The position numbers were made by a program, and so were the translations under genes. The notes below the pieces were generated by a model that made no database searches, had not been told where the DNA came from, and was given only the letters and a program-made list of their open reading frames with translations. A DNA stretch of 64,000 nucleotides from an uncultured Methanosarcinales archaeon (lineage in GTDB: Archaea; Nanobdellota; Nanobdellia; Woesearchaeales; ARS49): the NCBI GenBank assembly GCA_964637115.1, contig CAZWVL010000005.1:31360-95359 (forward strand), in the 5' to 3' direction. Position 1 is the first letter of the stretch; each line of letters opens with the position of its first letter. This document shows, one piece after another, positions 29,561 through 41,263 of this stretch.

Positions 29561-30175
29561 TTATTTCAGGTTGTTCTTCTGAATGCAGTATTCTATAAAA
29601 GTCAGCATTGGAAGCACAATCACGTTATTTTGATATTTTATTACTGCTACAAAATTCTCTCTTGCTGCCACGCTTATGCCGAATTGTATGCCGCCGTGCG
29701 GGATGTGCATGTGAACTGGGCTCGAGTCTCTTATTGCCTGCAGATATTCATCTGCAGTTCGGATATGTGTATGTGTTAGCTTTTCAACTTCTATGATTTC
29801 TGGCTGCCATATACCGGCGTGTGCTGTTCTGTAGAGTATCCGTCTTAATACGCTTTCGGCTTCTGCTTTCTGCAATGGGGTTCCCCCTGTGAAAATGCAC
29901 ATATCATCTTTACCTTGTTTTATTCCTTCCATTCGTGTTCCAAGCGCTTTTTTTGCAGGGTAGAACTCTTCAATCACTTTGATGTATCCGTCAGTGTATA
30001 TCCCGTCTTTTATTTCGATACCTTTGCCTATAATTTCGTCTAATCCTCTTGGGTCTGGTGCAAATTTTACCTCTGGTTGCTTGGGTTTTTCAATTTCTTT
30101 TTCCGGGACATCTTTCCCTCTGATGTTGTAATCAATTGGGTGTTCTGGGTCCGCAAAAGGGTTTTTTGGTGTCAT
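29561..30175 (-). CDS. NPFADPEHPIDY-tag protein, copy 1 (unique payload)
   Basis: Starts MTPKNPFADPEHPIDYNIRGKDV. ATGA overlap with copy 2. Confidence 0.8.
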   Translation of the reverse strand: MTPKNPFADPEHPIDYNIRGKDVPEKEIEKPKQPEVKFAPDPRGLDEIIGKGIEIKDGIYTDGYIKVIEEFYPAKKALGTRMEGIKQGKDDMCIFTGGTPLQKAEAESVLRRILYRTAHAGIWQPEIIEVEKLTHTHIRTADEYLQAIRDSSPVHMHIPHGGIQFGISVAARENFVAVIKYQNNVIVLPMLTFIEYCIQKNNLK

Positions 30176-30480
30176 CTTAATTTATTATTCAGTGAGATGT
30201 TTTTATACAATTCAGTGATTTCAAGATTGCTGGTTTTTGTAATGTTAAATTTTTCTTTTGTATCGATTATTATTTTGGATAAACAACTTTCAAAATAATC
30301 CAAGTGTTTAAAATATTTCATTTTTTCCAAATCAAGTTTTACTTTTCCAATTAGACCTTCAAGGAAGGGTTTACTTTCTGGTTTGTTCTGTGGCTTTTCA
30401 ACTTCGTTAGGAACGTCTTTCCCACAAATTCCATAATCAATCGGATGTTCTGGGTCCGCAAATGGGTTTTTCGGAGTCAT
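30172..30480 (-). CDS. NPFADPEHPIDY-tag protein, copy 2 (short, AT-rich payload); start reassigned
   Basis: MTPKNPFADPEHPIDYGICGKDV. ATGA overlap at 30477-80. Confidence 0.7.
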   Translation of the reverse strand: MTPKNPFADPEHPIDYGICGKDVPNEVEKPQNKPESKPFLEGLIGKVKLDLEKMKYFKHLDYFESCLSKIIIDTKEKFNITKTSNLEITELYKNISLNNKLR

Positions 30481-31232
30481 TTTTTTGTTCGTACCCCACG
30501 CGACGCCCTGCTGTCGTAGTAGCCGTAGACGTTGCACATGCCGTCGAAGTCGGCACGGCCAACAGGCCGCGCAGCACCATCAGGAGGCAAACTCATGCGC
30601 GCTTTGAAGTTGCCTTCACGCACCTCTTGTGGCAAATCCTTGAACTTCCGCCCATAGATGGCTTGAACCAAGTCATCACTGAATTCATCGAGTGGAATCC
30701 ACGTGTTTGATTTTTTACCTGCAATGTCAAACTCCTGCTTGTCGACAAATTTGAAAGAGGAATTTTTCACGTACGTATTGCTGTTCCACACCAATCCTTC
30801 AGGGTCGAGATATGCGATGAGAATGTTTCCTTTGCGTTCGAATGCCATGCTGAACCATTCGCCATAGCTTGATAACATATCGGCATGCATATTTCTGAAT
30901 GAAGTATCTACGAGCTTTCCCTTTATACCATCCATGATAAGACCAAGTGCTTCCTGAGGTCTCGGGTGACGCTCAAAGCCGGGCTCAAGGCCGTCTATGG
31001 TCAAGCGAACCAAACTGTTATTGAAATAGAACAACATCTTTTCTGATGCTCCTTGCTTACGACATGCAAGCGGCTCAAACTCAATACCCTTGTAAGAGGC
31101 TGTTACGATTCTGTTTTGCAGTGGAGTTTCAGGTTTTTCTTTCTCAGCATTTGCAGGTTCCTTCACATCCTTCCCTCTAATATTGTAATCTATCGGATGC
31201 TCTGGATCCTCGAATGGGTTTTTCGGAGTCAT
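30477..31232 (-). CDS. NPFADPEHPIDY-tag protein, copy 3 (subfamily A, DGR-VR-like C-terminus)
   Basis: Tag, then a domain paralogous to copies 7 and 8, ending SRGVRTKK. Confidence 0.85.
   Translation of the reverse strand: MTPKNPFEDPEHPIDYNIRGKDVKEPANAEKEKPETPLQNRIVTASYKGIEFEPLACRKQGASEKMLFYFNNSLVRLTIDGLEPGFERHPRPQEALGLIMDGIKGKLVDTSFRNMHADMLSSYGEWFSMAFERKGNILIAYLDPEGLVWNSNTYVKNSSFKFVDKQEFDIAGKKSNTWIPLDEFSDDLVQAIYGRKFKDLPQEVREGNFKARMSLPPDGAARPVGRADFDGMCNVYGYYDSRASRGVRTKK
30491..30568 (-). other. Putative DGR variable-region-like segment, copy 3
   Basis: 14 of 16 codons end in C, between flanks identical to those at 36131-36205. Confidence 0.5.
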
Positions 31233-32023
31233 TTCTTTCCTCTTGAGATTTTTTGCGCGCGTATGCCGATGGCTGGTCCCAAATAGGTCATATCGGCAGT
31301 GGCTTTGATTCTGAACTGGCCAATGCCGGCTTCTCCCATGATGACAGCAAGCTCAGTTGTTTCTTGCGGCGTCTTGTCAAGGCGCCAAAGGTACGTGTCG
31401 TAACCGCTTATCCAATGATAAACATCATTGATTTCTTCTAGGTTGTCTGTGCCGAGTATTGCTTTGCAAGCTTTTCTGCCATGCTTGGAGGTTTTCAACC
31501 ATTCGTCTGGACCTATGATATTCTCGATTAATCTTTCAGTAGGAAGGTTATGTGCCACGTGATCAGGCGGGCCTATGTGTGCGTAATACGTGACGCTGGA
31601 AAGCGTGTACACCACATTCCGGTCAAACGTATCGTGCAGGAAAGTCCTGACTTTCTCCATCAATCCTTTGTGTTGTGCAACGTCTTTGTTCCGGTAGAGT
31701 GCTGTGAACAATGCGTGATACATCGGTGCAGAAACCAGCGCAAAGACTTTGTCTTTTGCAGCTTTCTTAGAGTAAGCAAGCCAACCGTCGTGATTATACT
31801 TCGCGCCTCCCAAAAGAAGCTCTTTGGCAATATCGATAACATAAGTGTCGTTCTTGAACGGTACACCGTAAACGCGATATTTCTCAGCGAAGTCCTCAAG
31901 GCTGAATACGGAAGATGACGGTGCAGGTTCTCTTTTCTCAACCTTTGCCTCCTTCACGTCCTTCCCTCTAATATTGTAATCAATCGGGTGTTCCGGGTCC
32001 GCGAAAGGATTGTTTATAGGCAT
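31229..32023 (-). CDS. NPFADPEHPIDY-tag protein, copy 4 (subfamily B)
   Basis: MPINNPFADPEHPIDY…, FSLEDFAEKYRVYGV, ends AIGIRAQK. Confidence 0.85.
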   Translation of the reverse strand: MPINNPFADPEHPIDYNIRGKDVKEAKVEKREPAPSSSVFSLEDFAEKYRVYGVPFKNDTYVIDIAKELLLGGAKYNHDGWLAYSKKAAKDKVFALVSAPMYHALFTALYRNKDVAQHKGLMEKVRTFLHDTFDRNVVYTLSSVTYYAHIGPPDHVAHNLPTERLIENIIGPDEWLKTSKHGRKACKAILGTDNLEEINDVYHWISGYDTYLWRLDKTPQETTELAVIMGEAGIGQFRIKATADMTYLGPAIGIRAQKISRGKK

Positions 32024-33702
32024 CTTGCCACCTGTTTGTACTTGTCGCTCGCCACTTTTACCATGAGTTTGGCCAAGTCATCATTTTTGCCAACGTAGTA
32101 GACTGCCACTCCCCAAGATTCGAGGTCTTCGCTGAACTGGTTTTTGCCTCCTATTTGTATGTGTGCAGTTGAGCATTGCTGTGCAAGTGTTTTGTAGTCA
32201 TCTTTGATGCTTTCCCAGTTGCCTATTGCTCCGTCTGATAACGTCAGCAAAAATGTTTCTTCTTTCACTCGTTCTTTTAATTTGTTGATGTCGAGTGTTG
32301 TTACGCCCCATTGTGGTGTTAACAGAACTTTGTGCGCTTCTTGTCCGCTTCCTGCAATTGTTTCTGAGCTGAAGTTTACAACTCCTGCATCCACGTATGG
32401 TGCTATGTGCTGCTGTTGCAGGTATCTTTCTATGCCGTAGTATCCTAAGAGTGCGTAGTGGTATTTGCTTTTGTCTCCCCAGGGAATGAATGCCTTATTT
32501 CCGACGTTTTCTGTATTATTAGGAGCCAGTTCCATGCTTCCGCTGGAGTCTATGACTGCCAGCCTGAAGTTTGGGAATTTCTTGATATTGTGCTTGTATA
32601 CTTGTTCTGTTTCTATCCAGCCCCTGTTCACCATTAATCCTACAGAGCCGTCTTCGTTGATTCCGACTGTTGTTTTACGGGTGAAAATGTCGTGTGCTTC
32701 TGGATCGTATGCTTCTCTTCCGTATGGTGCTATTGGGAATCTGTATCCGTGTGTGAACGTGTCTATTTCTACCGGGATTTCTCTTGCAAGGCTTCTGTAT
32801 AGTGCGTCCAGCTGTTCGTAGGAATCCCTGTTTTGTGCTGGTCCCCTGCCTGCCTTGTACCTGTTGTGCGCCACTTTTTCCTGTCCGTCTGGGCTTTTCA
32901 TTTTTTTGTCAAACGCGTCTTCTCCTATCATTGCGTGGAGCAAATGTTCTTCTTTCTTGTCGAGAAGCGGTTCCATTATTGTTGCGAATTGTTCTGCCAT
33001 TTTTTCCCAGCGCTTTTTTTGGTATAGCTGTTCTACTTTTTCGCTCACTTTGCCCTTTTGCACGCCCCAGTTAGTCAGGACGTCATTTACTGCTTTCTGG
33101 ACTGTTTTGTCGTTTGTGTACCATCTTTTCAGCAATCTTTTATCCGCCTTGTTTCCTCCAAGTGCCAAATTCAACCTTACAAATGCATCATAGAATTTTG
33201 TGTACTTGCCGTGCGTCATTCCTTGTTCGTTCCAGAATAATATTTGTCCTGCGTGGTCTGTGTGGAGTCTGCAGTTTAAATTCACAAGCACGTCTTCAAA
33301 TGCGTTTGACACGTGGTCTGCGTATGCTTCTTTTCCTTTTTTCCCCAATATTTTTGTTACGCTTTCAAGTATTGCATCCCTGTATGTTTCGTCGTATGGG
33401 CATCCTTTGCCCGAACTTCTTGGTAGTTCCCAATGTCCGCATTCGTGGTACAGTATGTCTTCGCACATTTTCTCAAGTGGTTTGGAAATTCTTTTCTTCT
33501 TGACGTATTGTTCTGTTGCCTTGTCTCTTACCGGCTGGTAGCCTTCTTTGACGTGTATTTCCACGTGCCAGTCTCCAGTGTCTATAAACGCGCTTACAGG
33601 CTCTTTTGCATCAGCTGTCTCGAACAATTTTAGTCTGCCGCCTACCAATCCTATCCTGTTTTTCTGCTTGTTCAGTTTTTGTTCGAGTTCGCTGAGGGTC
33701 AT
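32014..33702 (-). CDS. HExxH metallopeptidase-like domain plus C-terminal vWA (MIDAS) domain
   Basis: ILYHECGHWE and NAFEDVLVN. MIDAS elements IDSSGSM, GVTT and LSDG. Confidence 0.85.
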   Translation of the reverse strand: MTLSELEQKLNKQKNRIGLVGGRLKLFETADAKEPVSAFIDTGDWHVEIHVKEGYQPVRDKATEQYVKKKRISKPLEKMCEDILYHECGHWELPRSSGKGCPYDETYRDAILESVTKILGKKGKEAYADHVSNAFEDVLVNLNCRLHTDHAGQILFWNEQGMTHGKYTKFYDAFVRLNLALGGNKADKRLLKRWYTNDKTVQKAVNDVLTNWGVQKGKVSEKVEQLYQKKRWEKMAEQFATIMEPLLDKKEEHLLHAMIGEDAFDKKMKSPDGQEKVAHNRYKAGRGPAQNRDSYEQLDALYRSLAREIPVEIDTFTHGYRFPIAPYGREAYDPEAHDIFTRKTTVGINEDGSVGLMVNRGWIETEQVYKHNIKKFPNFRLAVIDSSGSMELAPNNTENVGNKAFIPWGDKSKYHYALLGYYGIERYLQQQHIAPYVDAGVVNFSSETIAGSGQEAHKVLLTPQWGVTTLDINKLKERVKEETFLLTLSDGAIGNWESIKDDYKTLAQQCSTAHIQIGGKNQFSEDLESWGVAVYYVGKNDDLAKLMVKVASDKYKQVARCL

Positions 33703-33722
33703 TTTTTCTCTCCTGAGATTTT

Positions 33723-34514
33723 TTACACGCGTACGCCGAATGCAGATAATTTTTCGTCGGTTAAGTCATCGGCGCAAATTTCGAACTTGGATATGCCGTC
33801 TCCGTCGTAGACGCCAAGTGCAACCACTTGCTCTGCTTTTTTTGTTGGTTGGCTCTTAAATCTGCGCGCATACGAATTCTCTTTTGTGACCCACTTGAAT
33901 ACTTCATTGATTTGTACAACTTCATCTGTTGTGTCCAGGAGCGCTTGTGAATATTCTGTTGCACCCGCCAGTACAATGAAATTTTCATCTCCGATTAGCG
34001 TTGCTTTTTTTGTGTACTGCGTTTTTTGTTTGTATTCATGGATGACATCATTAACGCCGTTTGGATTGTATATTGCCCTCGAAAGCGTGCAAATAAAAAT
34101 CTCTTCCCCGATGACTTCTTCAAGCGTTTGTCGTGCATTTTCAACAAATTTCTTGTACTGACGTTCTTCGTTTTTGTAAAGCGATCTGCAAATAGCGTAA
34201 ACCAATGGCGCTGAGGCAGCAACGAATTCATCAGGTTTTGCTTGCTTTGCGTGTTCTGCATGCTCATCTTGCGTCTTCTCCGGCAATACTGATTTTGAAA
34301 AATCAACTGCATAAATGCCGTTTCTATATCGCACTCCTGTAATTCGATAGGAATCTGCAAGCTCTTCCAGGCTGAAGTCAGTCCTGATTTGATTGGGCGC
34401 AGGGCTCACAGGAACCTTCTTTGGTTCGCTCTTTTGCGGTTCCTTTACATCCTTCCCTCTAATATTGTAATCAATCGGGTGTTCAGGGTCCGCAAATGGA
34501 TTTTTTGGTGTCAT
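33723..34514 (-). CDS. NPFADPEHPIDY-tag protein, copy 5 (subfamily B)
   Basis: Tag, FSLEELADSYRITGV, ends AFGVRV. Confidence 0.85.
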   Translation of the reverse strand: MTPKNPFADPEHPIDYNIRGKDVKEPQKSEPKKVPVSPAPNQIRTDFSLEELADSYRITGVRYRNGIYAVDFSKSVLPEKTQDEHAEHAKQAKPDEFVAASAPLVYAICRSLYKNEERQYKKFVENARQTLEEVIGEEIFICTLSRAIYNPNGVNDVIHEYKQKTQYTKKATLIGDENFIVLAGATEYSQALLDTTDEVVQINEVFKWVTKENSYARRFKSQPTKKAEQVVALGVYDGDGISKFEICADDLTDEKLSAFGVRV

Positions 34515-35335
34515 TTTGTTTTTGTTGCGCGAATGCCTAGGGCAATGTGTTGTGCTTCGTATGAAGTGGCTAAAGTCAAGAATGAATGATGATTAGGACC
34601 GCCACCAACATGTTGGTCGCCTTTGCCGAATACGACTGCGCAGGGTTTCTCTGGCTGCACAAAAGGACTGAAATCCACCATTGTGGGATATTCAACTAGC
34701 CATTGGTGCACTGCGTCAACGTGCCCGTAATCCTCGTTTCCAAAGATGCTCTTGCACAGGGGTTCTCTCGCATCGCTTCGAAATTCGTGAAAGTAACCTC
34801 TTGATGCTGGGAAACCTTCAAAATGGTCTTTTTTGCCTTCAGGGTCAAGATGGCAGCCTAATTTAGGCGTGATTTGTGAGTTTTTTTCTCCGAACGAAAT
34901 GCTCGACATCGTCATGAATTGGCTTCGACTTCCAAGTACGTTTTGCAGGAAAAGTTGAACCATTTTAATCTGTTTTTCGTATCTCGGATCGTTCCTGTTT
35001 TGATACAACGCGTCAAAGAATGCAAAATATAAAGGCATGCTTCCAACTCCAAAGCCGCCTCTACTTCTTGCCTGCGATGTGTATTCAAACCATTGTTCTA
35101 TGTTTTTTTGGCTGCAGGCTTCCAATGCTGTATAGCCGTCTAGGTCTACTGTGTAGATTCCATTTCCGTACTTTACTCCGTTCACGCGTATGAATCCTTG
35201 AGTGTCATCTATGCTGAAGAGGCTTGAAATTTCCGGCTTGGGTGCCGCTTGTATGACTCTTTCAACCAAATCTTTGCCTCTAATATTGTAATCTATCGGG
35301 TGTTCAGGGTCCGCGAAAGGGTTTTTTGGGTTCAT
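34511..35335 (-). CDS. NPFADPEHPIDY-tag protein, copy 6 (subfamily B, divergent)
   Basis: Tag, FSIDDTQGFIRVNGVKYGNGIYTVD, ends ALGIRATKTK. Confidence 0.85.
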   Translation of the reverse strand: MNPKNPFADPEHPIDYNIRGKDLVERVIQAAPKPEISSLFSIDDTQGFIRVNGVKYGNGIYTVDLDGYTALEACSQKNIEQWFEYTSQARSRGGFGVGSMPLYFAFFDALYQNRNDPRYEKQIKMVQLFLQNVLGSRSQFMTMSSISFGEKNSQITPKLGCHLDPEGKKDHFEGFPASRGYFHEFRSDAREPLCKSIFGNEDYGHVDAVHQWLVEYPTMVDFSPFVQPEKPCAVVFGKGDQHVGGGPNHHSFLTLATSYEAQHIALGIRATKTK

Positions 35336-36120
35336 TTCTCTCTGACTCCGCGTGAGGCTGCCTTTGTGTAATAACAGCCGATGTTAAATTTGTAGCTAGA
35401 TTTGTACTCACCCGTGCCGCCTATGCTTACTGGCCAAAAGTCTCCACCCGTTGGAATGCTTACTCGGATTTTTTCAGGGCCTTTTCGCAATTTTTCTGGC
35501 AGGTCTTCGAATGAGCGGCCTGTGATAAATCGTACAAATTTGTCATCAAAAGCTTTCAATTCCTGCCAATAATTTCCTACATTCCCGACATCAAATTCAA
35601 GGACATATCTGAATGTAAAATCGTCTCTCTTGTGGTATCCAGACCATTTTTTTCCCGAAGGAGGGTTAGCAAAATAATCCAAGTTTCGCGGCTCAATATA
35701 TGCGAGCAGAATGTTTCCTTTTCTTTCAAATGCCAGGCTCAACCATTCGCCCGAACCCTTGCCCATGTCATTAAAGACTGCCTCTAAATCTCCGCTAAGG
35801 CGTTTCTCAACGCCATCAATGATAAGTCCAAATGCTTCGTGGGCTTTTGGATGGCGAGTATAGTTGTTTTTCTTGATTCTTTCCAAACTGCCGTCATACT
35901 GCCATAGTTTTTTGAAGGAATTTTCGCCACGTAACACTTCTTTTTCAAATATCAGGTCGTTATAATTTGTGGCGTGCTGTATTGGAGCCGGGGATGGCTC
36001 TGGCTTATTCTTGCCTTCTTTTTCATCTTTTGTCGCTCCTTTCTGTTCTGGCACATCCTTCCCACTAATTCCATAATCAATCGGGTGTTCAGGGTCCGCA
36101 AATGGATTTTTTGGTGTCAT
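35332..36120 (-). CDS. NPFADPEHPIDY-tag protein, copy 7 (subfamily A); start reassigned
   Basis: Tag, RHPKAHEAFGLI, EWLSLAFERKGNIL, ends SRGVREK. Confidence 0.85.
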   Translation of the reverse strand: MTPKNPFADPEHPIDYGISGKDVPEQKGATKDEKEGKNKPEPSPAPIQHATNYNDLIFEKEVLRGENSFKKLWQYDGSLERIKKNNYTRHPKAHEAFGLIIDGVEKRLSGDLEAVFNDMGKGSGEWLSLAFERKGNILLAYIEPRNLDYFANPPSGKKWSGYHKRDDFTFRYVLEFDVGNVGNYWQELKAFDDKFVRFITGRSFEDLPEKLRKGPEKIRVSIPTGGDFWPVSIGGTGEYKSSYKFNIGCYYTKAASRGVREK

Positions 36121-36851
36121 TTTTTCTTGCGTACCCCACGCGACGTCCAGGTTTCGAGGTGACTGCCGCAGACGCCGTACCCACGGTAGCAACGGCCAAC
36201 AGGCCACGCAGTATTATCAAGAGGCAATTGCATGTGCGCTTTGTTGTTGCCTTTACGCATGGCTTGTGGCAAATCCTTGAACTTCCGTCCATAAACTGCT
36301 TGGAGTAAGTCATCATTGAATTCATTGAGTGGAATCCACGTGTTTGATAGTTTGCCTGCAATGTCAAACTCCTGCTTATCGACAAATTTGAAAGAGGAGT
36401 CTTTTACGTAAGTATTGCTGTTCCACACCAACCCTTCGGGATCAAGATAGGCGATGAGAATGTTTCCTTGGCGTTCGAATGCCGTGCTGAACCATTCGCC
36501 AGCGATTGATATCATATCAGTATACTTATTTCTGTATGAGGTATTAACGAGTTTTTCTTCTAAACAATCCATAATAAGACCAAATGCTTCCTGAGGGCGA
36601 GCATGCCTGTCGAAACCAGCACTTCGCACCCTGTTCAGGCTATCGTTGAAATAAAATAACTTATTTTCTGGTGCTCCTTGCCCAAGGAATGGAAGCGGTT
36701 CAAACTCAATATCCTTGTAAGAGGCTGTTATGATTCTGTTTTGTTTTGGAGTTTCAGGAACAATCGGTCCTTTTTGTTCTGGCACATCCTTCCCTCTAAT
36801 ATTGTAATCAATCGGGTGTTCAGGGTCTGCAAAAGGGTTTTTTGGTGTCAT
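36117..36851 (-). CDS. NPFADPEHPIDY-tag protein, copy 8 (subfamily A, DGR-VR-like C-terminus); start reassigned
   Basis: Tag, close paralog of copy 3, ends SRGVRKKK. ATGA overlap with the MoxR stop. Confidence 0.85.
   Translation of the reverse strand: MTPKNPFADPEHPIDYNIRGKDVPEQKGPIVPETPKQNRIITASYKDIEFEPLPFLGQGAPENKLFYFNDSLNRVRSAGFDRHARPQEAFGLIMDCLEEKLVNTSYRNKYTDMISIAGEWFSTAFERQGNILIAYLDPEGLVWNSNTYVKDSSFKFVDKQEFDIAGKLSNTWIPLNEFNDDLLQAVYGRKFKDLPQAMRKGNNKAHMQLPLDNTAWPVGRCYRGYGVCGSHLETWTSRGVRKKK
36131..36205 (-). other. Putative DGR variable-region-like segment, copy 8
   Basis: 10 of 15 codons end in C, with the same flanks as copy 3. Confidence 0.45.
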
Positions 36852-38047
36852 TTTTTTGCAGAGTTGGCTGTCCTGTTTAGGATGTCTTTCATGTATGCCC
36901 ATCTGCCCTCGAATTCTGTGAGGTGTTTGGCTGTTCCTTTTTGCGCTGACTTGATGGCCTGCATCAGCACGTCTTTCTTTGTTGAAAATTCGTTTCTGAT
37001 TCCGTCCATTACTGCTTGCATGGCGCTGTACGTGTTGCCGTCATAGTGTTGGTTTACTGCTGCAGGAGCAAGTACTCCTGATTGTGCTCCTATGAGATAG
37101 GCAGCGTCAAATACTGCTTCCAAGCTGTCTTGGTAAGCATTGTCCTTTGCCTTGCGCACTTCTTCGAATGCTTTTGCAAGTGTTAGCGTGCTTATTGCTG
37201 ATCTGGTGCTGAATGGGTAAATCAATGCTGCGTCGCTTCCCTTTGCATGGTTTTTCACGCATCCTGGCCAGGCGTTTTTGTTTTTGCGCTTGCTGTTGCC
37301 TTGCACGCTGTCAAGATAGTCAAGTCCGTGCACAAGGTACATTGCTGCCACGTATTGCAATAGTGTTGGATTGGATTTTTCTGTAAACTCCTTGTGTGCC
37401 TGAAGTATTTGTTCTGTCTTGTCCGTGCTTTCAGCTGAGCTTACACGTGGGTCTTTCTTGCTTATCAAGACGTCAAGCGTGTCGCTTGAGCTTTTTGGGA
37501 ACGCATCTGCATCAATTATCAGGTGCATTCTGTCAAGCAGTGCTCTGTCCACTTCTGATGTTCCTACAAATCTTCCATTGCCGACGTTTCCTGATGCTAT
37601 TCCTATGCTGTAGCCGTCTTTGCCAAGCTGGTATTTCTGTCCGTCTATTGTTATGAATCCGTCGAATAGGTTGAAGAATTGGTTTTGCACTGCCGGAATG
37701 CATCTTGTCAGCTCGTCTATTACATAAACGAGATGTTTTGCGTTTGCCGTAATTTCCTTTATTCCTTCTGTTGATTTGTTTTTGTCAATTTTGTCCAAGT
37801 TTAATTTGGTGAACATTTCCCTGACTGTCAGGTCATTTCTTCCTTGTTCAAAGAATCCTTTGTTGCCGAACAATCCCAAAATGTCATTCTCAAGCTGTGT
37901 TTTTCCTTCTCCTGTGTCTCCTATGAGCAAAAGGTTTAACCTGCCCAGTAAACAAGATTTCACAATGTCTTCCATTGCGATGCCTGGCACAACTTCTGTT
38001 GAGTTTTTGTAGTTTTGTAGTTTGATGGAGTTTAGTTCGTCTTTCAT
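36848..38047 (-). CDS. MoxR-like AAA+ ATPase
   Basis: Walker A LIGDTGEGKT, Walker B YVIDELTR, then QNQFFNL, IASGN and Arg finger DRALLDRM. Confidence 0.9.
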   Translation of the reverse strand: MKDELNSIKLQNYKNSTEVVPGIAMEDIVKSCLLGRLNLLLIGDTGEGKTQLENDILGLFGNKGFFEQGRNDLTVREMFTKLNLDKIDKNKSTEGIKEITANAKHLVYVIDELTRCIPAVQNQFFNLFDGFITIDGQKYQLGKDGYSIGIASGNVGNGRFVGTSEVDRALLDRMHLIIDADAFPKSSSDTLDVLISKKDPRVSSAESTDKTEQILQAHKEFTEKSNPTLLQYVAAMYLVHGLDYLDSVQGNSKRKNKNAWPGCVKNHAKGSDAALIYPFSTRSAISTLTLAKAFEEVRKAKDNAYQDSLEAVFDAAYLIGAQSGVLAPAAVNQHYDGNTYSAMQAVMDGIRNEFSTKKDVLMQAIKSAQKGTAKHLTEFEGRWAYMKDILNRTANSAKK

Positions 38048-38312: not shown

Positions 38313-38939
38313 ATGGGCAGAAAGAAGAAGAGTTTTTGGGCAGATGCGGTGTTTATTGGGGCTTGTGCAGCTGCAGGTTTATACTGTTTGGCGCGAATAA
38401 GAGATTCAGCTGATGACGCGCCCCTGCCTGCAGAGAAGCCCGTAGTTATAGCAGCAATGCCTCAGCCTGAAGCTCCAAAGAAACTGGAGCAGATTGTTGT
38501 TGATGAAAAAGCAGTATTGACATTCGTACAATCAAGAGAAAGTTTTCAGTTCTATGGCGATAGAGTTTTGAAAGGAGGCAAGTACCGGCAGTTAGATGCA
38601 GACTTGTACGGGTTATTGATGCACATGGCAGATGCTTACAAGGCGCAGTTTGACCAACCATTATTCATAGGCCCTATGTGGGATGACCAAGGGCATGTAA
38701 AGAATTCAAAGCATTATGATGGGTTGGCTGTTGATATTGACTTTGGTGCAAATATTGGTACGCCTCAATATATTAAGACTGACAAGGATAAAGCAGAGTT
38801 TCTTTTGCGTCATGTCCAGAAATATGCAAATAAGCACAATAAAGAATTTAAAGTTCTGTTCAACGATCCTGATTTCGTGAATATGAAATTATGCAAGGAA
38901 TCTCCTGGCCACCACAATCATATTCACGTGTCGAAGTGA
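38313..38939 (+). CDS. Membrane-anchored Zn peptidase of the M15/MepA (LAS, hedgehog/DD-peptidase) type
   Basis: N-terminal TM. SKHYDGLAVDID (H-x6-D) and C-terminal GHHNHIHV (HxH). Confidence 0.75.
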   Translation: MGRKKKSFWADAVFIGACAAAGLYCLARIRDSADDAPLPAEKPVVIAAMPQPEAPKKLEQIVVDEKAVLTFVQSRESFQFYGDRVLKGGKYRQLDADLYGLLMHMADAYKAQFDQPLFIGPMWDDQGHVKNSKHYDGLAVDIDFGANIGTPQYIKTDKDKAEFLLRHVQKYANKHNKEFKVLFNDPDFVNMKLCKESPGHHNHIHVSK

Positions 38940-38944
38940 GGTTT

Positions 38945-39541
38945 ATGGAAAAAGCATTGGAACTTCTGGATTTTATGAACTTCAGGCTTGAGAATATCGA
39001 GCAGTTCAAGGCCAAAGCAGCTGAAAAACTGTTTTCTTTGGAAGCACATGGCCGAATGATGAATTTGAAAACAGATATTGTCAGGAGAACTCGGCAGTTA
39101 GTTGAAGAATGGATGAAGGTCAAGGGGATTCAAAAGTATGAATATGGTTTTGAGTGCGATAATCACACTTATAAGATGGATGAGAAGCCTGGCAGGCTGC
39201 AGGTGATGATAAAAAACGATCCTAAAAGTCCTGATTTATTTGTTGCGAGAACTGCTGGCTGGACTCCTGATGGGGGAGCGAATGCAGATCTTCAATTGAG
39301 ATTGTCTTCGTTGGAGCATTTGTTGGGCAGCTTTAACCGCTGGGCTGATAAGCGGTTCCAGGCGCCTGAGATAGTCAAGGAAGTGAAGTATTACTTCAAT
39401 CAGTTGGTGTTCAAGGACAAGCCTCCGTACAGCTTTGTAGGTTGGCTTTCTTACAATAATAGGTCGGTTGGTACGCACATACGTATGGACCTTGGCACTC
39501 CAATGTCATTGTATGTTGAGCTGAAGAACGAAAGGAAGTAA
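38945..39541 (+). CDS. Hypothetical protein
   Basis: GTGAGG SD upstream. No recognised motif. Confidence 0.6.
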   Translation: MEKALELLDFMNFRLENIEQFKAKAAEKLFSLEAHGRMMNLKTDIVRRTRQLVEEWMKVKGIQKYEYGFECDNHTYKMDEKPGRLQVMIKNDPKSPDLFVARTAGWTPDGGANADLQLRLSSLEHLLGSFNRWADKRFQAPEIVKEVKYYFNQLVFKDKPPYSFVGWLSYNNRSVGTHIRMDLGTPMSLYVELKNERK

Positions 39542-39625
39542 TTTTTATTACCTTGTAGTGACTACAAATAGAAAGGTTTTTATAGGGCTCTGGATTTCTA
39601 AATGCTTTACAACGAGGTATCTACT

Positions 39626-41263
39626 ATGATCAAGAAAACATTGGCCGGAATGGCACTTTCATTGGCAGCTTTAGTTGGTTGCTACGGAGCTAAAGAGTCT
39701 TCGAGCCCAGCCGTCATTTCTGCACCTGTCAAAGACCCAGAGATTTTTCCAACACCGGTTCCGGTTTGTGACAGCAAAGTGCTAGAGCTTTATGAAGATC
39801 TTTACGAGCACTTCCGCACTCTCACTTCAGCCGAATGGCCTGCAGTGCTTAAGGACGGTTCTATTACAAACGCGCAAGGTACTACACAATACTTGCAGCG
39901 CCTGACGCATGCAGGAAGGGTTATTTTTGGCCAGAATGAATATAATATTGTCGATACATTTTTCCACGCAAAAGATGGCCAGACATTGTTCAGTTATGCA
40001 ATTGCATTCCCTGACAAGTTGAAGTCTAGCCGCAATCTTCTCACCAATGGATTACCTGATCTTGTCGGCGTACAATTCAACATTCTTGGAAAAGACTATG
40101 TTGTTGATGCTGTCTCGATGTCGGTTGATGGAGATATGAAGATGAATCTGACTTCGTTGGACGGTCTCACTATGCTGGCGTTCAGTGATAATTCGAATGA
40201 CGTAATTAATGGTTTTTCTGTGCGTGTTAATGGCATACCTGTTCCTGAGGGGCGCATCAGTTTTAACAAGATTTTTGATGCAGACACTGCCGAGCTTGAC
40301 AGTATAGTTTACAAGCTTGCTGCAGAAACGCCTTTCGGCGACCTGTATGTTCCGCCGGGCGAGGGCGTGCGCCAACACTTGCAGCGTCCGCAGGCATTGC
40401 TTAGCGATGGTTGGGACGTCCTGTATGCAGGACTTAACACGACAAATGACACAACAATGCTGTTCTCGCAGCCGCAGCCGAGCGTGATCGACTTCTCCTT
40501 CGTTTCAAGGGAAAACATTCCATACTCGTTCGCCCTTGCGGAAAACGTTGACGGTAAAGTATCATTTTCGCGCAACTACAATTCAAACCGCCTCCGTTTT
40601 ATCGAGGGCGAGCCGATTGTCGCAGGCGACCGCTTTATCCTGAATAAGCCCGGCTCTGACTTAACGCGCGTACTAGAATATAACACGATAGACACAGTTG
40701 CTAGGCAAGTTACTTTCCAAGACTTGGGCACAGGGACGCGACAGGTCACGTACGACGCCGTCACCAAGAAAGGTGATTTGATTGTCGGCGGGGACACGTT
40801 CGCGTTCCAGGTTGACGAGGCAAACGGCAATGCACTCTATGTTGACTTGAACGGCGATGGTGCCTTAGACGGCAGTGGTCCGAATGGCCAGCTCGCCCAC
40901 ATCGTTAACAAGTTCGGCGGCAAACTGCACCTTCCGCAGCTGTATTCTGCTCCGGAGTTTTACGTTAAAATTGAAGCGCCTGGCAGCGGAATTGATAGCA
41001 GGGCGTGCAATCCTGCGCTTGGTGGCGAGGCCGTGCCTATCCAGCTCAGCGCGCGCGACAATGTCAATATGGACGTTTCAGTGCTGACGCAACTGGAATC
41101 GTCCGGTTCAGCAATCCCTGACGTGCATTACGACCTGCCCGCGAACATGTTCCGCGGAATGTCGCAGTATGGCGTCGAAGTGCAGCATATGCCATCTGCG
41201 CGCCTGCTCTATGTGCAGTACCCGCAAACGCAGCGCAAGCCGCGCATCGCGTTCACGCCTTGA
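39626..41263 (+). CDS. S-layer-like lipoprotein
   Basis: Lipobox LVGC. Beta-rich segments (TRVLEYNTIDT…TFQDLGTGTRQVTY…LIVGG…VDLNGDG) resemble DPANN S-layer proteins, from recall. Confidence 0.55.
   Translation: MIKKTLAGMALSLAALVGCYGAKESSSPAVISAPVKDPEIFPTPVPVCDSKVLELYEDLYEHFRTLTSAEWPAVLKDGSITNAQGTTQYLQRLTHAGRVIFGQNEYNIVDTFFHAKDGQTLFSYAIAFPDKLKSSRNLLTNGLPDLVGVQFNILGKDYVVDAVSMSVDGDMKMNLTSLDGLTMLAFSDNSNDVINGFSVRVNGIPVPEGRISFNKIFDADTAELDSIVYKLAAETPFGDLYVPPGEGVRQHLQRPQALLSDGWDVLYAGLNTTNDTTMLFSQPQPSVIDFSFVSRENIPYSFALAENVDGKVSFSRNYNSNRLRFIEGEPIVAGDRFILNKPGSDLTRVLEYNTIDTVARQVTFQDLGTGTRQVTYDAVTKKGDLIVGGDTFAFQVDEANGNALYVDLNGDGALDGSGPNGQLAHIVNKFGGKLHLPQLYSAPEFYVKIEAPGSGIDSRACNPALGGEAVPIQLSARDNVNMDVSVLTQLESSGSAIPDVHYDLPANMFRGMSQYGVEVQHMPSARLLYVQYPQTQRKPRIAFTP

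Follow-up and report, generated by a model that had tools for sequence, protein, structure and literature searches.

Eight small proteins are encoded in one operon on the minus strand of a 64,000-nt stretch of DNA (hereafter the window; contig C5:31360-95359, GenBank CAZWVL010000005.1, assembly GCA_964637115.1) from a Woesearchaeota-type DPANN archaeon, whose genome is a metagenome-assembled genome (MAG) of 1.27 Mb in 27 contigs, with a GC content of 43% and a completeness of 98.3%. Two of these proteins, copies 3 and 8, diverge abruptly near their C-termini between identical flanks, which raises the question of whether the divergent tails are variable regions (VRs) of a diversity-generating retroelement (DGR), i.e. 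segments rewritten by a reverse transcriptase (RT) from a template repeat (TR) with errors at adenines, and whether such rewriting goes on at present. In this study, comparison with related loci strongly supports a DGR origin of both tails, and the corresponding cassette was found beside homologous genes in relatives. In the genome of the window itself neither RT nor TR was detected, and the tails are probably orphaned VRs.

Variable tails of copies 3 and 8

The two genes, their variable stretches and those of a third paralog are located as follows (ORF, open reading frame; IMH, initiation of mutagenic homing; L003, L068 and similar handles denote the related loci described below).

30477..31232, minus strand: copy 3 (tag3), ORF of 251 aa
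36117..36851, minus strand: copy 8 (tag8), ORF of 244 aa, paralog of copy 3 with 68% aa identity
30496..30574, minus strand: copy 3 stretch matching template repeats in alignment to the L003/L068 TR; core 30507-30554 (16 codons), constant flanks 30555-30574 and 30496-30506
36136..36211, minus strand: copy 8 stretch matching template repeats in the same alignment; core 36147-36191 (15 codons)
30490..30506, minus strand: 3′ boundary of the copy 3 VR, IMH-like, a constant GC-rich 11-mer and then GGTACG, where the templates of relatives read AATAG; same VR/TR boundary in L003, L010, L011, L027, L060 and L068
36130..36146, minus strand: 3′ boundary of the copy 8 VR, IMH-like, equal to that of copy 3 except for the first base by sequence comparison
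35332..36120, minus strand: tag7, a third paralog of 262 aa; identity to copies 3 and 8 is 40% by family alignment and pairwise comparison
35359-35427, minus strand: older, decayed VR of tag7, with the WPV...ASRGVR frame kept and both flanks drifted in nucleotide sequence

On the minus strand, the 5′ flank is exact at 30555-30568 and 36192-36205 and the second flank at 30491-30505 and 36131-36145, and each occurs exactly twice in the window, compared with shuffle expectations of 0.31 and 0.00. The flanks enclose 49 nt in copy 3 (30506-30554) and 46 nt in copy 8 (36146-36191). Codons ending in C make up 14/16 of the copy 3 tail versus 52/236 codons elsewhere in this gene (Fisher p = 1.8e-7), and 10/15 of the copy 8 tail versus 52/229 (p = 6e-4); the GC content local to the tails is 0.60-0.64, as against 0.43-0.46. 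The flanks, the lengths of the divergent parts and their C-ending codons, from which a DGR had originally been proposed, were all reproduced by this sequence check. The two proteins had also been described as near-identical; they are indeed close paralogs, but near-identity does not hold, since outside the tail they share 79% nucleotide identity, the protein identity is 68%, and further divergent patches are present.

Identity of the flanks between copies 3 and 8 (9/10 synonymous positions, compared with 76% in the gene body, P = 0.28) is not evidence of homogenisation. When the flanks were compared with those of homologues in other genomes, 10/10 codons were identical at the nucleotide level (P = 0.017 to 0.0002), as against gene bodies in which only 42-66% of third positions agree. 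Among 5.8 billion proteins searched, 28 relatives were found, none of which has a Pfam domain. In the alignment of this family the body is well conserved; one patch, bounded by WPVGR and (R)ASRGVR, is never the same in two members and is composed largely of G, Y, D, S, F, C, N and V, which are what NNC codons encode. In tag7 only 10/23 codons of this patch end in C, several NNC codons having been replaced by NNT or NNA, which is the picture of a long-dead VR.

A retroelement cassette beside homologous targets in relatives

A homologous target gene with an adjacent RT was found in nine DPANN loci (L003, L010, L011, L027, L029, L034, L060, L061 and L068), among which L010 belongs to genome G069, L011 to G084 and L029 to an Aenigmatarchaeota MAG. 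A template repeat lies between target and RT in eight of the nine; the exception is L061, where no TR was found by scan and the locus looks degraded. In five loci (L003, L027, L029, L060 and L068) the 14-nt 5′ flank of the template is identical to that of the window. In L003, an NCBI MAG contig, the genes run bpMoxR/AAA_5, target 1, a 572-aa protein and target 2, and a non-coding stretch separates target 2 from an RVT_1 gene. The TR of L003 is located in this interval; it is an 82-nt repeat of both VRs with 43% adenine and runs of AAC, and its core is identical to that of the L068 TR. The other TR-bearing loci repeat this layout or have a target with TR and RT right behind it, and in L061 the RT comes straight after the target.

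Mismatches between VRs and their own TRs fall only or almost only at adenines. Counted as adenine/non-adenine, they are 8/0 for the second VR of L003, 14/0 for L011, and 11/0 and 9/0 for L068, while the first VR of L003 has eight at adenines, one elsewhere and a length difference of two codons. Thus the A-to-N mutagenesis of an AAC-rich template, which had been read from NNC codons alone, is borne out by relatives in which such templates exist and the mismatches are biased to adenines. An artefactual TR-VR relation is unlikely, because it recurs in nine independent loci. Moreover, the VRs of relatives end in the constant 11-mer followed by GGTACG and the TRs go on with AATAG, with a variant of both in L029; this is the VR-versus-TR boundary (IMH versus IMH*) expected of a DGR, and both window VRs carry it. 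Its function is presumed here by analogy with Bordetella phage BPP-1.

The RT-16 RNA (Rfam RF03019) directly precedes the TR. It was detected above threshold, with 54-83 bits, in L010, L011, L027, L029, L034, L060 and L065, and it scored 43.9 bits in L003, at the following positions.

L003:8689-8895, RT-16 RNA (Rfam RF03019)
L010:5388-5559, RT-16 RNA (Rfam RF03019)
L011:2968-3123, RT-16 RNA (Rfam RF03019)
L027:6783-6941, RT-16 RNA (Rfam RF03019)
L029:2235-2486, RT-16 RNA (Rfam RF03019)
L034:6104-6275, RT-16 RNA (Rfam RF03019)
L060:5450-5609, RT-16 RNA (Rfam RF03019)
L065:354-503, RT-16 RNA (Rfam RF03019)

In every DGR of this lineage that was checked (seven of the nine RT-linked loci, and L065) this RNA is located between the last target gene and the TR, and it is a useful marker for finding such cassettes.

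Length differences between VRs and their own TRs are common. Inside the AAC runs, 9 of 12 VRs (loci L003, L010, L027, L029, L034, L060 and L068) differ from the template by whole codons, in a range from -11 to +3. Two copies of one protein, P0005 and P0041, differ within the VR only, and one codon of length is among their differences. These data suggest that the retroelement creates length variation besides adenine substitutions.

In a sample of 201 genomes of the order, an RT was detected in 41 and the target family in 9. Five of the six genomes with strong family matches had an RT above the cut-off (G000, the genome of the window, was excluded from this count). In one Woesearchaeota MAG (G143, loci L036-L059), 13 to more than 20 copies of the target family are spread over many contigs, and its only RT lies on a 4.1-kb contig (L014) and is interrupted by a TAA codon, a large expansion of remote targets in which the RT is possibly broken. 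In L061 (4660-12200 of a 261-kb ENA contig) the DGR-linked operon seems degraded, with a short AAA_5 fragment, several small ORFs, a transposase of insertion-sequence type nearby and a frame shift inside the VR of target P0010.

Window tails compared with foreign templates

The tails of copies 3 and 8 were aligned to the TR core of L003 and L068, which is foreign to them, by a plain match/mismatch aligner that is unbiased. Copy 3 showed nine mismatches at adenines, one at a non-adenine position and a gap of one codon (Fisher p = 7.5e-4), a fit as good as that of the first L003 VR to its own TR. Copy 8 showed 14 mismatches at adenines, six at non-adenine positions and a gap of two codons at the 5′ end (p = 9e-4). 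Hence both copies have what a VR shows on the target side of a DGR, namely NNC-rich codons between constant flanks and differences that fall on template adenines, and the sequence comparison strongly supports a DGR origin of both tails. The original prediction had carried the caveat that the two tails are not collinear, so that two templates or an old event would be needed. This caveat largely falls, and the imperfect collinearity is no longer a worry, because whole-codon differences between VR and TR are the rule in RT-linked relatives.

Predicted fold of the tail-bearing protein

Copy 3 has no sequence match in Pfam, NCBIfam or the PDB, and a PDB profile search found nothing significant. Its AlphaFold model, built from the family alignment, has a predicted local distance difference test score (pLDDT) of 83, and ∼87-92 across the VR. 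Foldseek returned no PDB match with E ≤ 0.001; its top rows were TaqVP, AvpA and C-type lectins, with non-significant E-values, and the lectin assignment is based on re-scoring by VIA-align. In this re-scoring, TaqVP (5vf4) obtained Z 9.2 over 182 aligned residues and AvpA (5ioo) Z 9.1 over 171 aligned residues, many C-type lectins followed at Z 7-8, and ∼130 C-type-lectin chains had Z ≥ 5. According to the model, copies 3 and 8 have a C-type-lectin fold in which the VR occupies the C-terminal ligand-binding end, which places them with the lectin-fold class of DGR targets.

Search for the retroelement in the genome of the window

No RT or TR had been seen in the window, and this is confirmed and holds likewise for the rest of the assembled genome. 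A profile search of the genome with RVT_1 (PF00078) gave no candidate, the RT protein of L003 had no match with E ≤ 10, and the best tblastn hit had E = 0.65; the same searches do recover RTs in relatives. For the RT-16 RNA, 110 candidates were scored in the genome and none reached E ≤ 1, and the conserved RT-16 word was not found there either. The window and the assembled genome hold no third copy of the flanks, and the genome holds no AAC-rich stretch or template repeat linked to them. Thus an AAC-rich TR with these flanks beside an RT, which might have been expected elsewhere in the genome, was found in loci of relatives and not here. Taking RT, matching TR and RT-16 RNA together, all three parts of a complete DGR are missing from the assembly, and present DGR activity in this genome is not supported. 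The tails therefore belong among DGR variable regions on lectin-fold targets, and not among complete DGRs.

AAC-rich regions of the genome, such as C3:99900-102600 (99.9-102.6 kb) outside the window, were considered as TRs and rejected; they consist of periodic coding repeats unrelated to the flanks. The C3 region is a long run of periodic NNC-AAC hexamers, and its opposite strand would encode a repetitive protein rich in V, G and E.

The search was extended beyond the genome. Metagenome scans for a template with the window flanks gave no match and then six chance matches, and these scans had little power, because they missed the JGI contig L060 with its three exact matches. Among viral contigs, this flank-template pattern gave no match. 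When 401 genomes of the order were searched for exact patterns of VR and TR type, copy 8 of the window was the only match; L003, L027, L029, L060 and L068 lay outside this sample. A full DGR was observed at the start of a contig of a same-genus genome (G387:C3, L065:120-1684), with the end of a target and its VR, RT-16 RNA, TR and RT; this RT is 69% identical to that of L003 and belongs to the same RT lineage, and the flanks are unlike those of the window. Homologues of the G387 RT (3,828 relatives) were also considered as a source of an RT in the population, and two candidates present in both JGI and Logan were rejected, since they came from other samples and their flanks are unrelated.

Stasis of the window tails

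An independent JGI contig, L006, has the same layout as the operon region of the window and differs from it at 41 of 13,488 bases, and both VRs are free of differences. Across copy 3, the window is matched exactly by three Logan contigs from other runs, and these three assemblies read through the copy 3 VR unbroken. Protein clusters of copies 3 and 8 at 90% identity contain no VR variant, and P0005 and P0041, from the RT-bearing lineage of L060, serve as a positive control with VR-only differences in the same database. Thus variation restricted to the VR, the mark of ongoing diversification, was absent from L006, the Logan contigs and the clusters, in comparisons of consensus assemblies rather than reads.

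The 3′ side of the VR was also compared. Both window VRs lack the downstream inverted-repeat arm of several RT-linked VRs, and single-sequence folds 3′ of the VR give -10 to -16 kcal/mol in several relatives versus about -5 in the window copies. The alignment fold of this hairpin shows no covariation, and because no covariation supports the hairpin, the missing arm is a weak hint.

In L006, 38 of the 41 differences cluster in 39131-40284 (1.2 kb), across the ORFs 38891-39541 and 39602-41263, and three lie elsewhere; the second ORF encodes a 553-aa protein with an N-terminal hydrophobic segment. This cluster of single-nucleotide polymorphisms (SNPs) indicates either recombination or a fast-evolving surface gene.

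Origin and present state of the tails

We favour, as the most probable account, that copies 3 and 8 carry orphaned and probably inactive VRs, whose TR, RT-16 RNA and RT have been lost or did not come with the operon in the first place. The operon of relatives has, in order, a MoxR-type AAA+ ATPase, target 1, a ∼570-aa HExxH/vWA-like protein and target 2, followed by the RT-16 RNA, an AAC-rich TR and the RT. In the proposed mechanism, RNA of the TR would be copied by the RT with errors at adenines, and the resulting cDNA would replace the VR between its constant flanks. Copies 3 and 8 would have been written likewise, from a template very like that of L003 and L068. Once the TR, RT-16 RNA and RT had been lost from the genome of the window, or if they had never been gained with the operon, the absence of TR and RT would leave both VRs orphaned and no longer rewritten. 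Copy 3 is nearly pristine, copy 8 has more non-adenine changes, and tag7 has a much older VR in decay.

A possible but less probable explanation is that both VRs are live DGR targets, whose cognate TR and RT reside in the organism or in its virus or plasmid and were missed in a gap, on an unbinned contig or on a mobile element. A number of points weigh against orphaned VRs and in this direction. The MAG is assembled in 27 contigs and has seven scaffold gaps of 100 N, and the DGR cassettes and RTs of relatives are often at contig ends; because of these gaps and this tendency, a TR-RT unit of 1.5 kb could be unassembled or unbinned. G387, a genome of the same genus, carries at the start of a contig a full DGR whose RT is of the same lineage, though with different flanks, and targets far from any RT are common in the family (e.g. 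at least 13 copies in G143). The flanks and the 3′ boundary of the window VRs are intact and still match functional VRs exactly; if the retroelement was lost, this must have happened recently. The six non-adenine differences of copy 8 may reflect a different template or later drift. Furthermore, the evidence for stasis comes from consensus assemblies of very close strains, with only three differences in ∼12 kb outside the SNP cluster, and its power is limited because the strains are so close and assemblies were compared instead of reads. We hold a cognate retroelement outside the assembly, as an unassembled or trans-acting DGR, to be possible and somewhat doubtful. On the other side, five independent searches of a 98.3% complete genome found no RT, TR or RT-16 RNA. 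The JGI assembly, from a second strain, has the same sequence in both VRs, and three Logan assemblies have that of copy 3, whose VR they cross without a break; no cluster variant was seen, whereas an RT-linked relative does show VR-only variation in the same database. The missing inverted-repeat arm points the same way, weakly, there being no covariation.

Explanations that need no retroelement fit the data poorly. The tails might be a fast-evolving surface loop shaped by ordinary mutation and selection after duplication, as the other divergent patches between the paralogs, the indels needed to align the tails and the lack of an RT in the genome would allow. We consider this very improbable: the differences from a foreign template fall on adenines, the NNC bias is strong against a genome of 43% GC, the flanks are nucleotide-identical to the TRs and VRs of distant genomes, and homologous VRs stand beside an RT in nine loci, eight with a TR, where VR-TR indels are normal. 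Still less credible is a cassette exchange like that of antigenic variation, in which paralogs or silent cassettes would trade tails through recombination or gene conversion. The short identical flanks could serve as recombination sites and the operon has signs of duplication and payload swapping, but the genome assembly contains no further flank copy or silent cassette, adenine specificity and NNC bias are not expected from conversion, and relatives show the TR-RT mechanism directly.

Orphaned VRs, our preferred account, can be carried further, to a state after the loss in which diversity has become fixed as eight paralogs with a leader tag, including three one-time DGR targets that have decayed to different degrees, so that somatic hypermutation would have been converted into germline paralog diversity. 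The same reading would have a DPANN lineage of DGRs built into a MoxR-AAA+/HExxH-vWA operon and diversifying small, leader-bearing lectin-fold sensors. We put forward this combined reading only tentatively, and hold it less likely to be right than wrong.

Layout of the operon

Positions 38047-29561 of the minus strand form a single, tightly packed operon in the order AAA_5 ATPase, tags 8, 7, 6 and 5, a 562-aa protein, and tags 4, 3, 2 and 1. An N-terminal leader of ∼23 aa is common to all eight tag proteins, four before and four after the 562-aa gene. The remaining features of the operon are the following (MIDAS, metal-ion-dependent adhesion site).

36848..38047, minus strand: AAA_5 (MoxR-like) ATPase at the operon head (Pfam PF07728, E = 1e-10)
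32014..33702, minus strand: 562-aa protein with HExxH and DxSxS (MIDAS-like) motifs, read from the translation
31229-32023, minus strand: tag 4, second payload family, by comparison; mutual identity of tags 4, 5 and 6 30-37%
33723-34514, minus strand: tag 5, same payload family
34511-35335, minus strand: tag 6, same payload family

The AAA_5 ATPase of the window and the bpMoxR/AAA_5 protein at the head of the DGR-bearing operon of L003 share 33% identity, and the same position is filled in L060 and L068. The 562-aa protein is 32% identical over 505 aa (E = 1e-82) to the 572-aa protein of L003, a homologue that sits between two DGR targets in relatives; Pfam, NCBIfam and PADLOC scans gave no match for it, and its vWA assignment rests on the DxSxS motif read from the sequence, without a model match. 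Downstream of the last target, where relatives have the TR and RT, the window has tags 2 and 1 and then a gene for an M50 peptidase.

The C-termini of tags 4-6 end in G-[IV]-R-like motifs and resemble lectin-fold DGR targets; a structure predicted for tags 4-6 from an alignment of three sequences had a pLDDT of 35 and was rejected as unusable. The operon also shows signs of duplication and payload swapping. The leader peptide is common within one operon and differs between lineages (window 29561-36851; L003:5343-8657; L068:1868-5240; L060:2175-5414; L061:10001-10789). The window and L060 share the type NPFADP...IDYN, L003 and L068 share MNPNTFAGFNLDDVF, and L061 has NPFLDDDVEIDYG. Such an operon-specific leader would suit a tag for docking or recognition that evolves together with the ATPase and vWA-like partners of its own operon.

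Comparison with known systems

DGRs in DPANN archaea and lectin-fold targets are already established (PMC5006420). With the present data, an inference from codon patterns becomes a documented case, a DGR target family without sequence matches in Pfam or the PDB, present in DPANN archaea of the Woesearchaeota type and others, for which the exact template, RT-16 RNA and RT are identified in relatives. In this lineage, where VR and TR frequently differ by whole codons, variation in length may come on top of the known adenine substitutions. Moreover, the window offers a dated series of orphaned VRs (fresh, intermediate and decayed), which could serve the study of targets after hypermutation stops.

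In AvpA (PDB 5IOO) the VR is short and the boundary element encodes a last strand that is constant, and AvpA-like proteins are listed in Woesearchaeota genomes without a DGR (Handa et al. 2016, PMC5006420). Like AvpA, the window proteins come from nanosized archaea and carry a short C-terminal VR on a predicted C-type-lectin fold (structural Z 9.1 over 171 residues), with a constant last strand that reads RFxGV in AvpA and SRGVR here. Unlike AvpA, with which they share no detectable sequence similarity, they have the VR almost at the very C-terminus, an N-terminal leader common to operon neighbours and a place in a MoxR/vWA-like operon. The best structural match is TaqVP of Thermus aquaticus (PDB 5VF4), likewise a DGR target of C-type-lectin fold, although TaqVP is bacterial, larger (∼380 aa) and only 10% identical in sequence.

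In bacteria, DGR-diversified sensors with lectin/FGS domains occur in MoxR-vWA ternary conflict systems (Kaur et al. 2020, PMC7159879; Dore et al. [quoted passage not shown] The tagged proteins had no Pfam or PADLOC family match, and no VMAP component was recognised with libraries that hold no VMAP model; the AAA_5 of the window was matched, and L003 and L068 carry bpMoxR. The window differs from the bacterial ternary systems in belonging to a DPANN archaeon, in having the lectin domain as a separate small protein that is not fused to vWA, and in a vWA-like partner that has HExxH and matches no Pfam model. It resembles them in that one neighbourhood brings together a MoxR-type AAA+ ATPase, a putative vWA-type partner and a DGR-diversified protein of lectin fold, and its relatives have TR and RT at the operon end, where the retroelement was not found in the window itself. 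Because such an arrangement has so far been described for bacterial conflict systems, the archaeal operons (L003, L060, L068 and the window) extend the MoxR/vWA-DGR theme to archaea, with a separate small target and an operon-specific leader.

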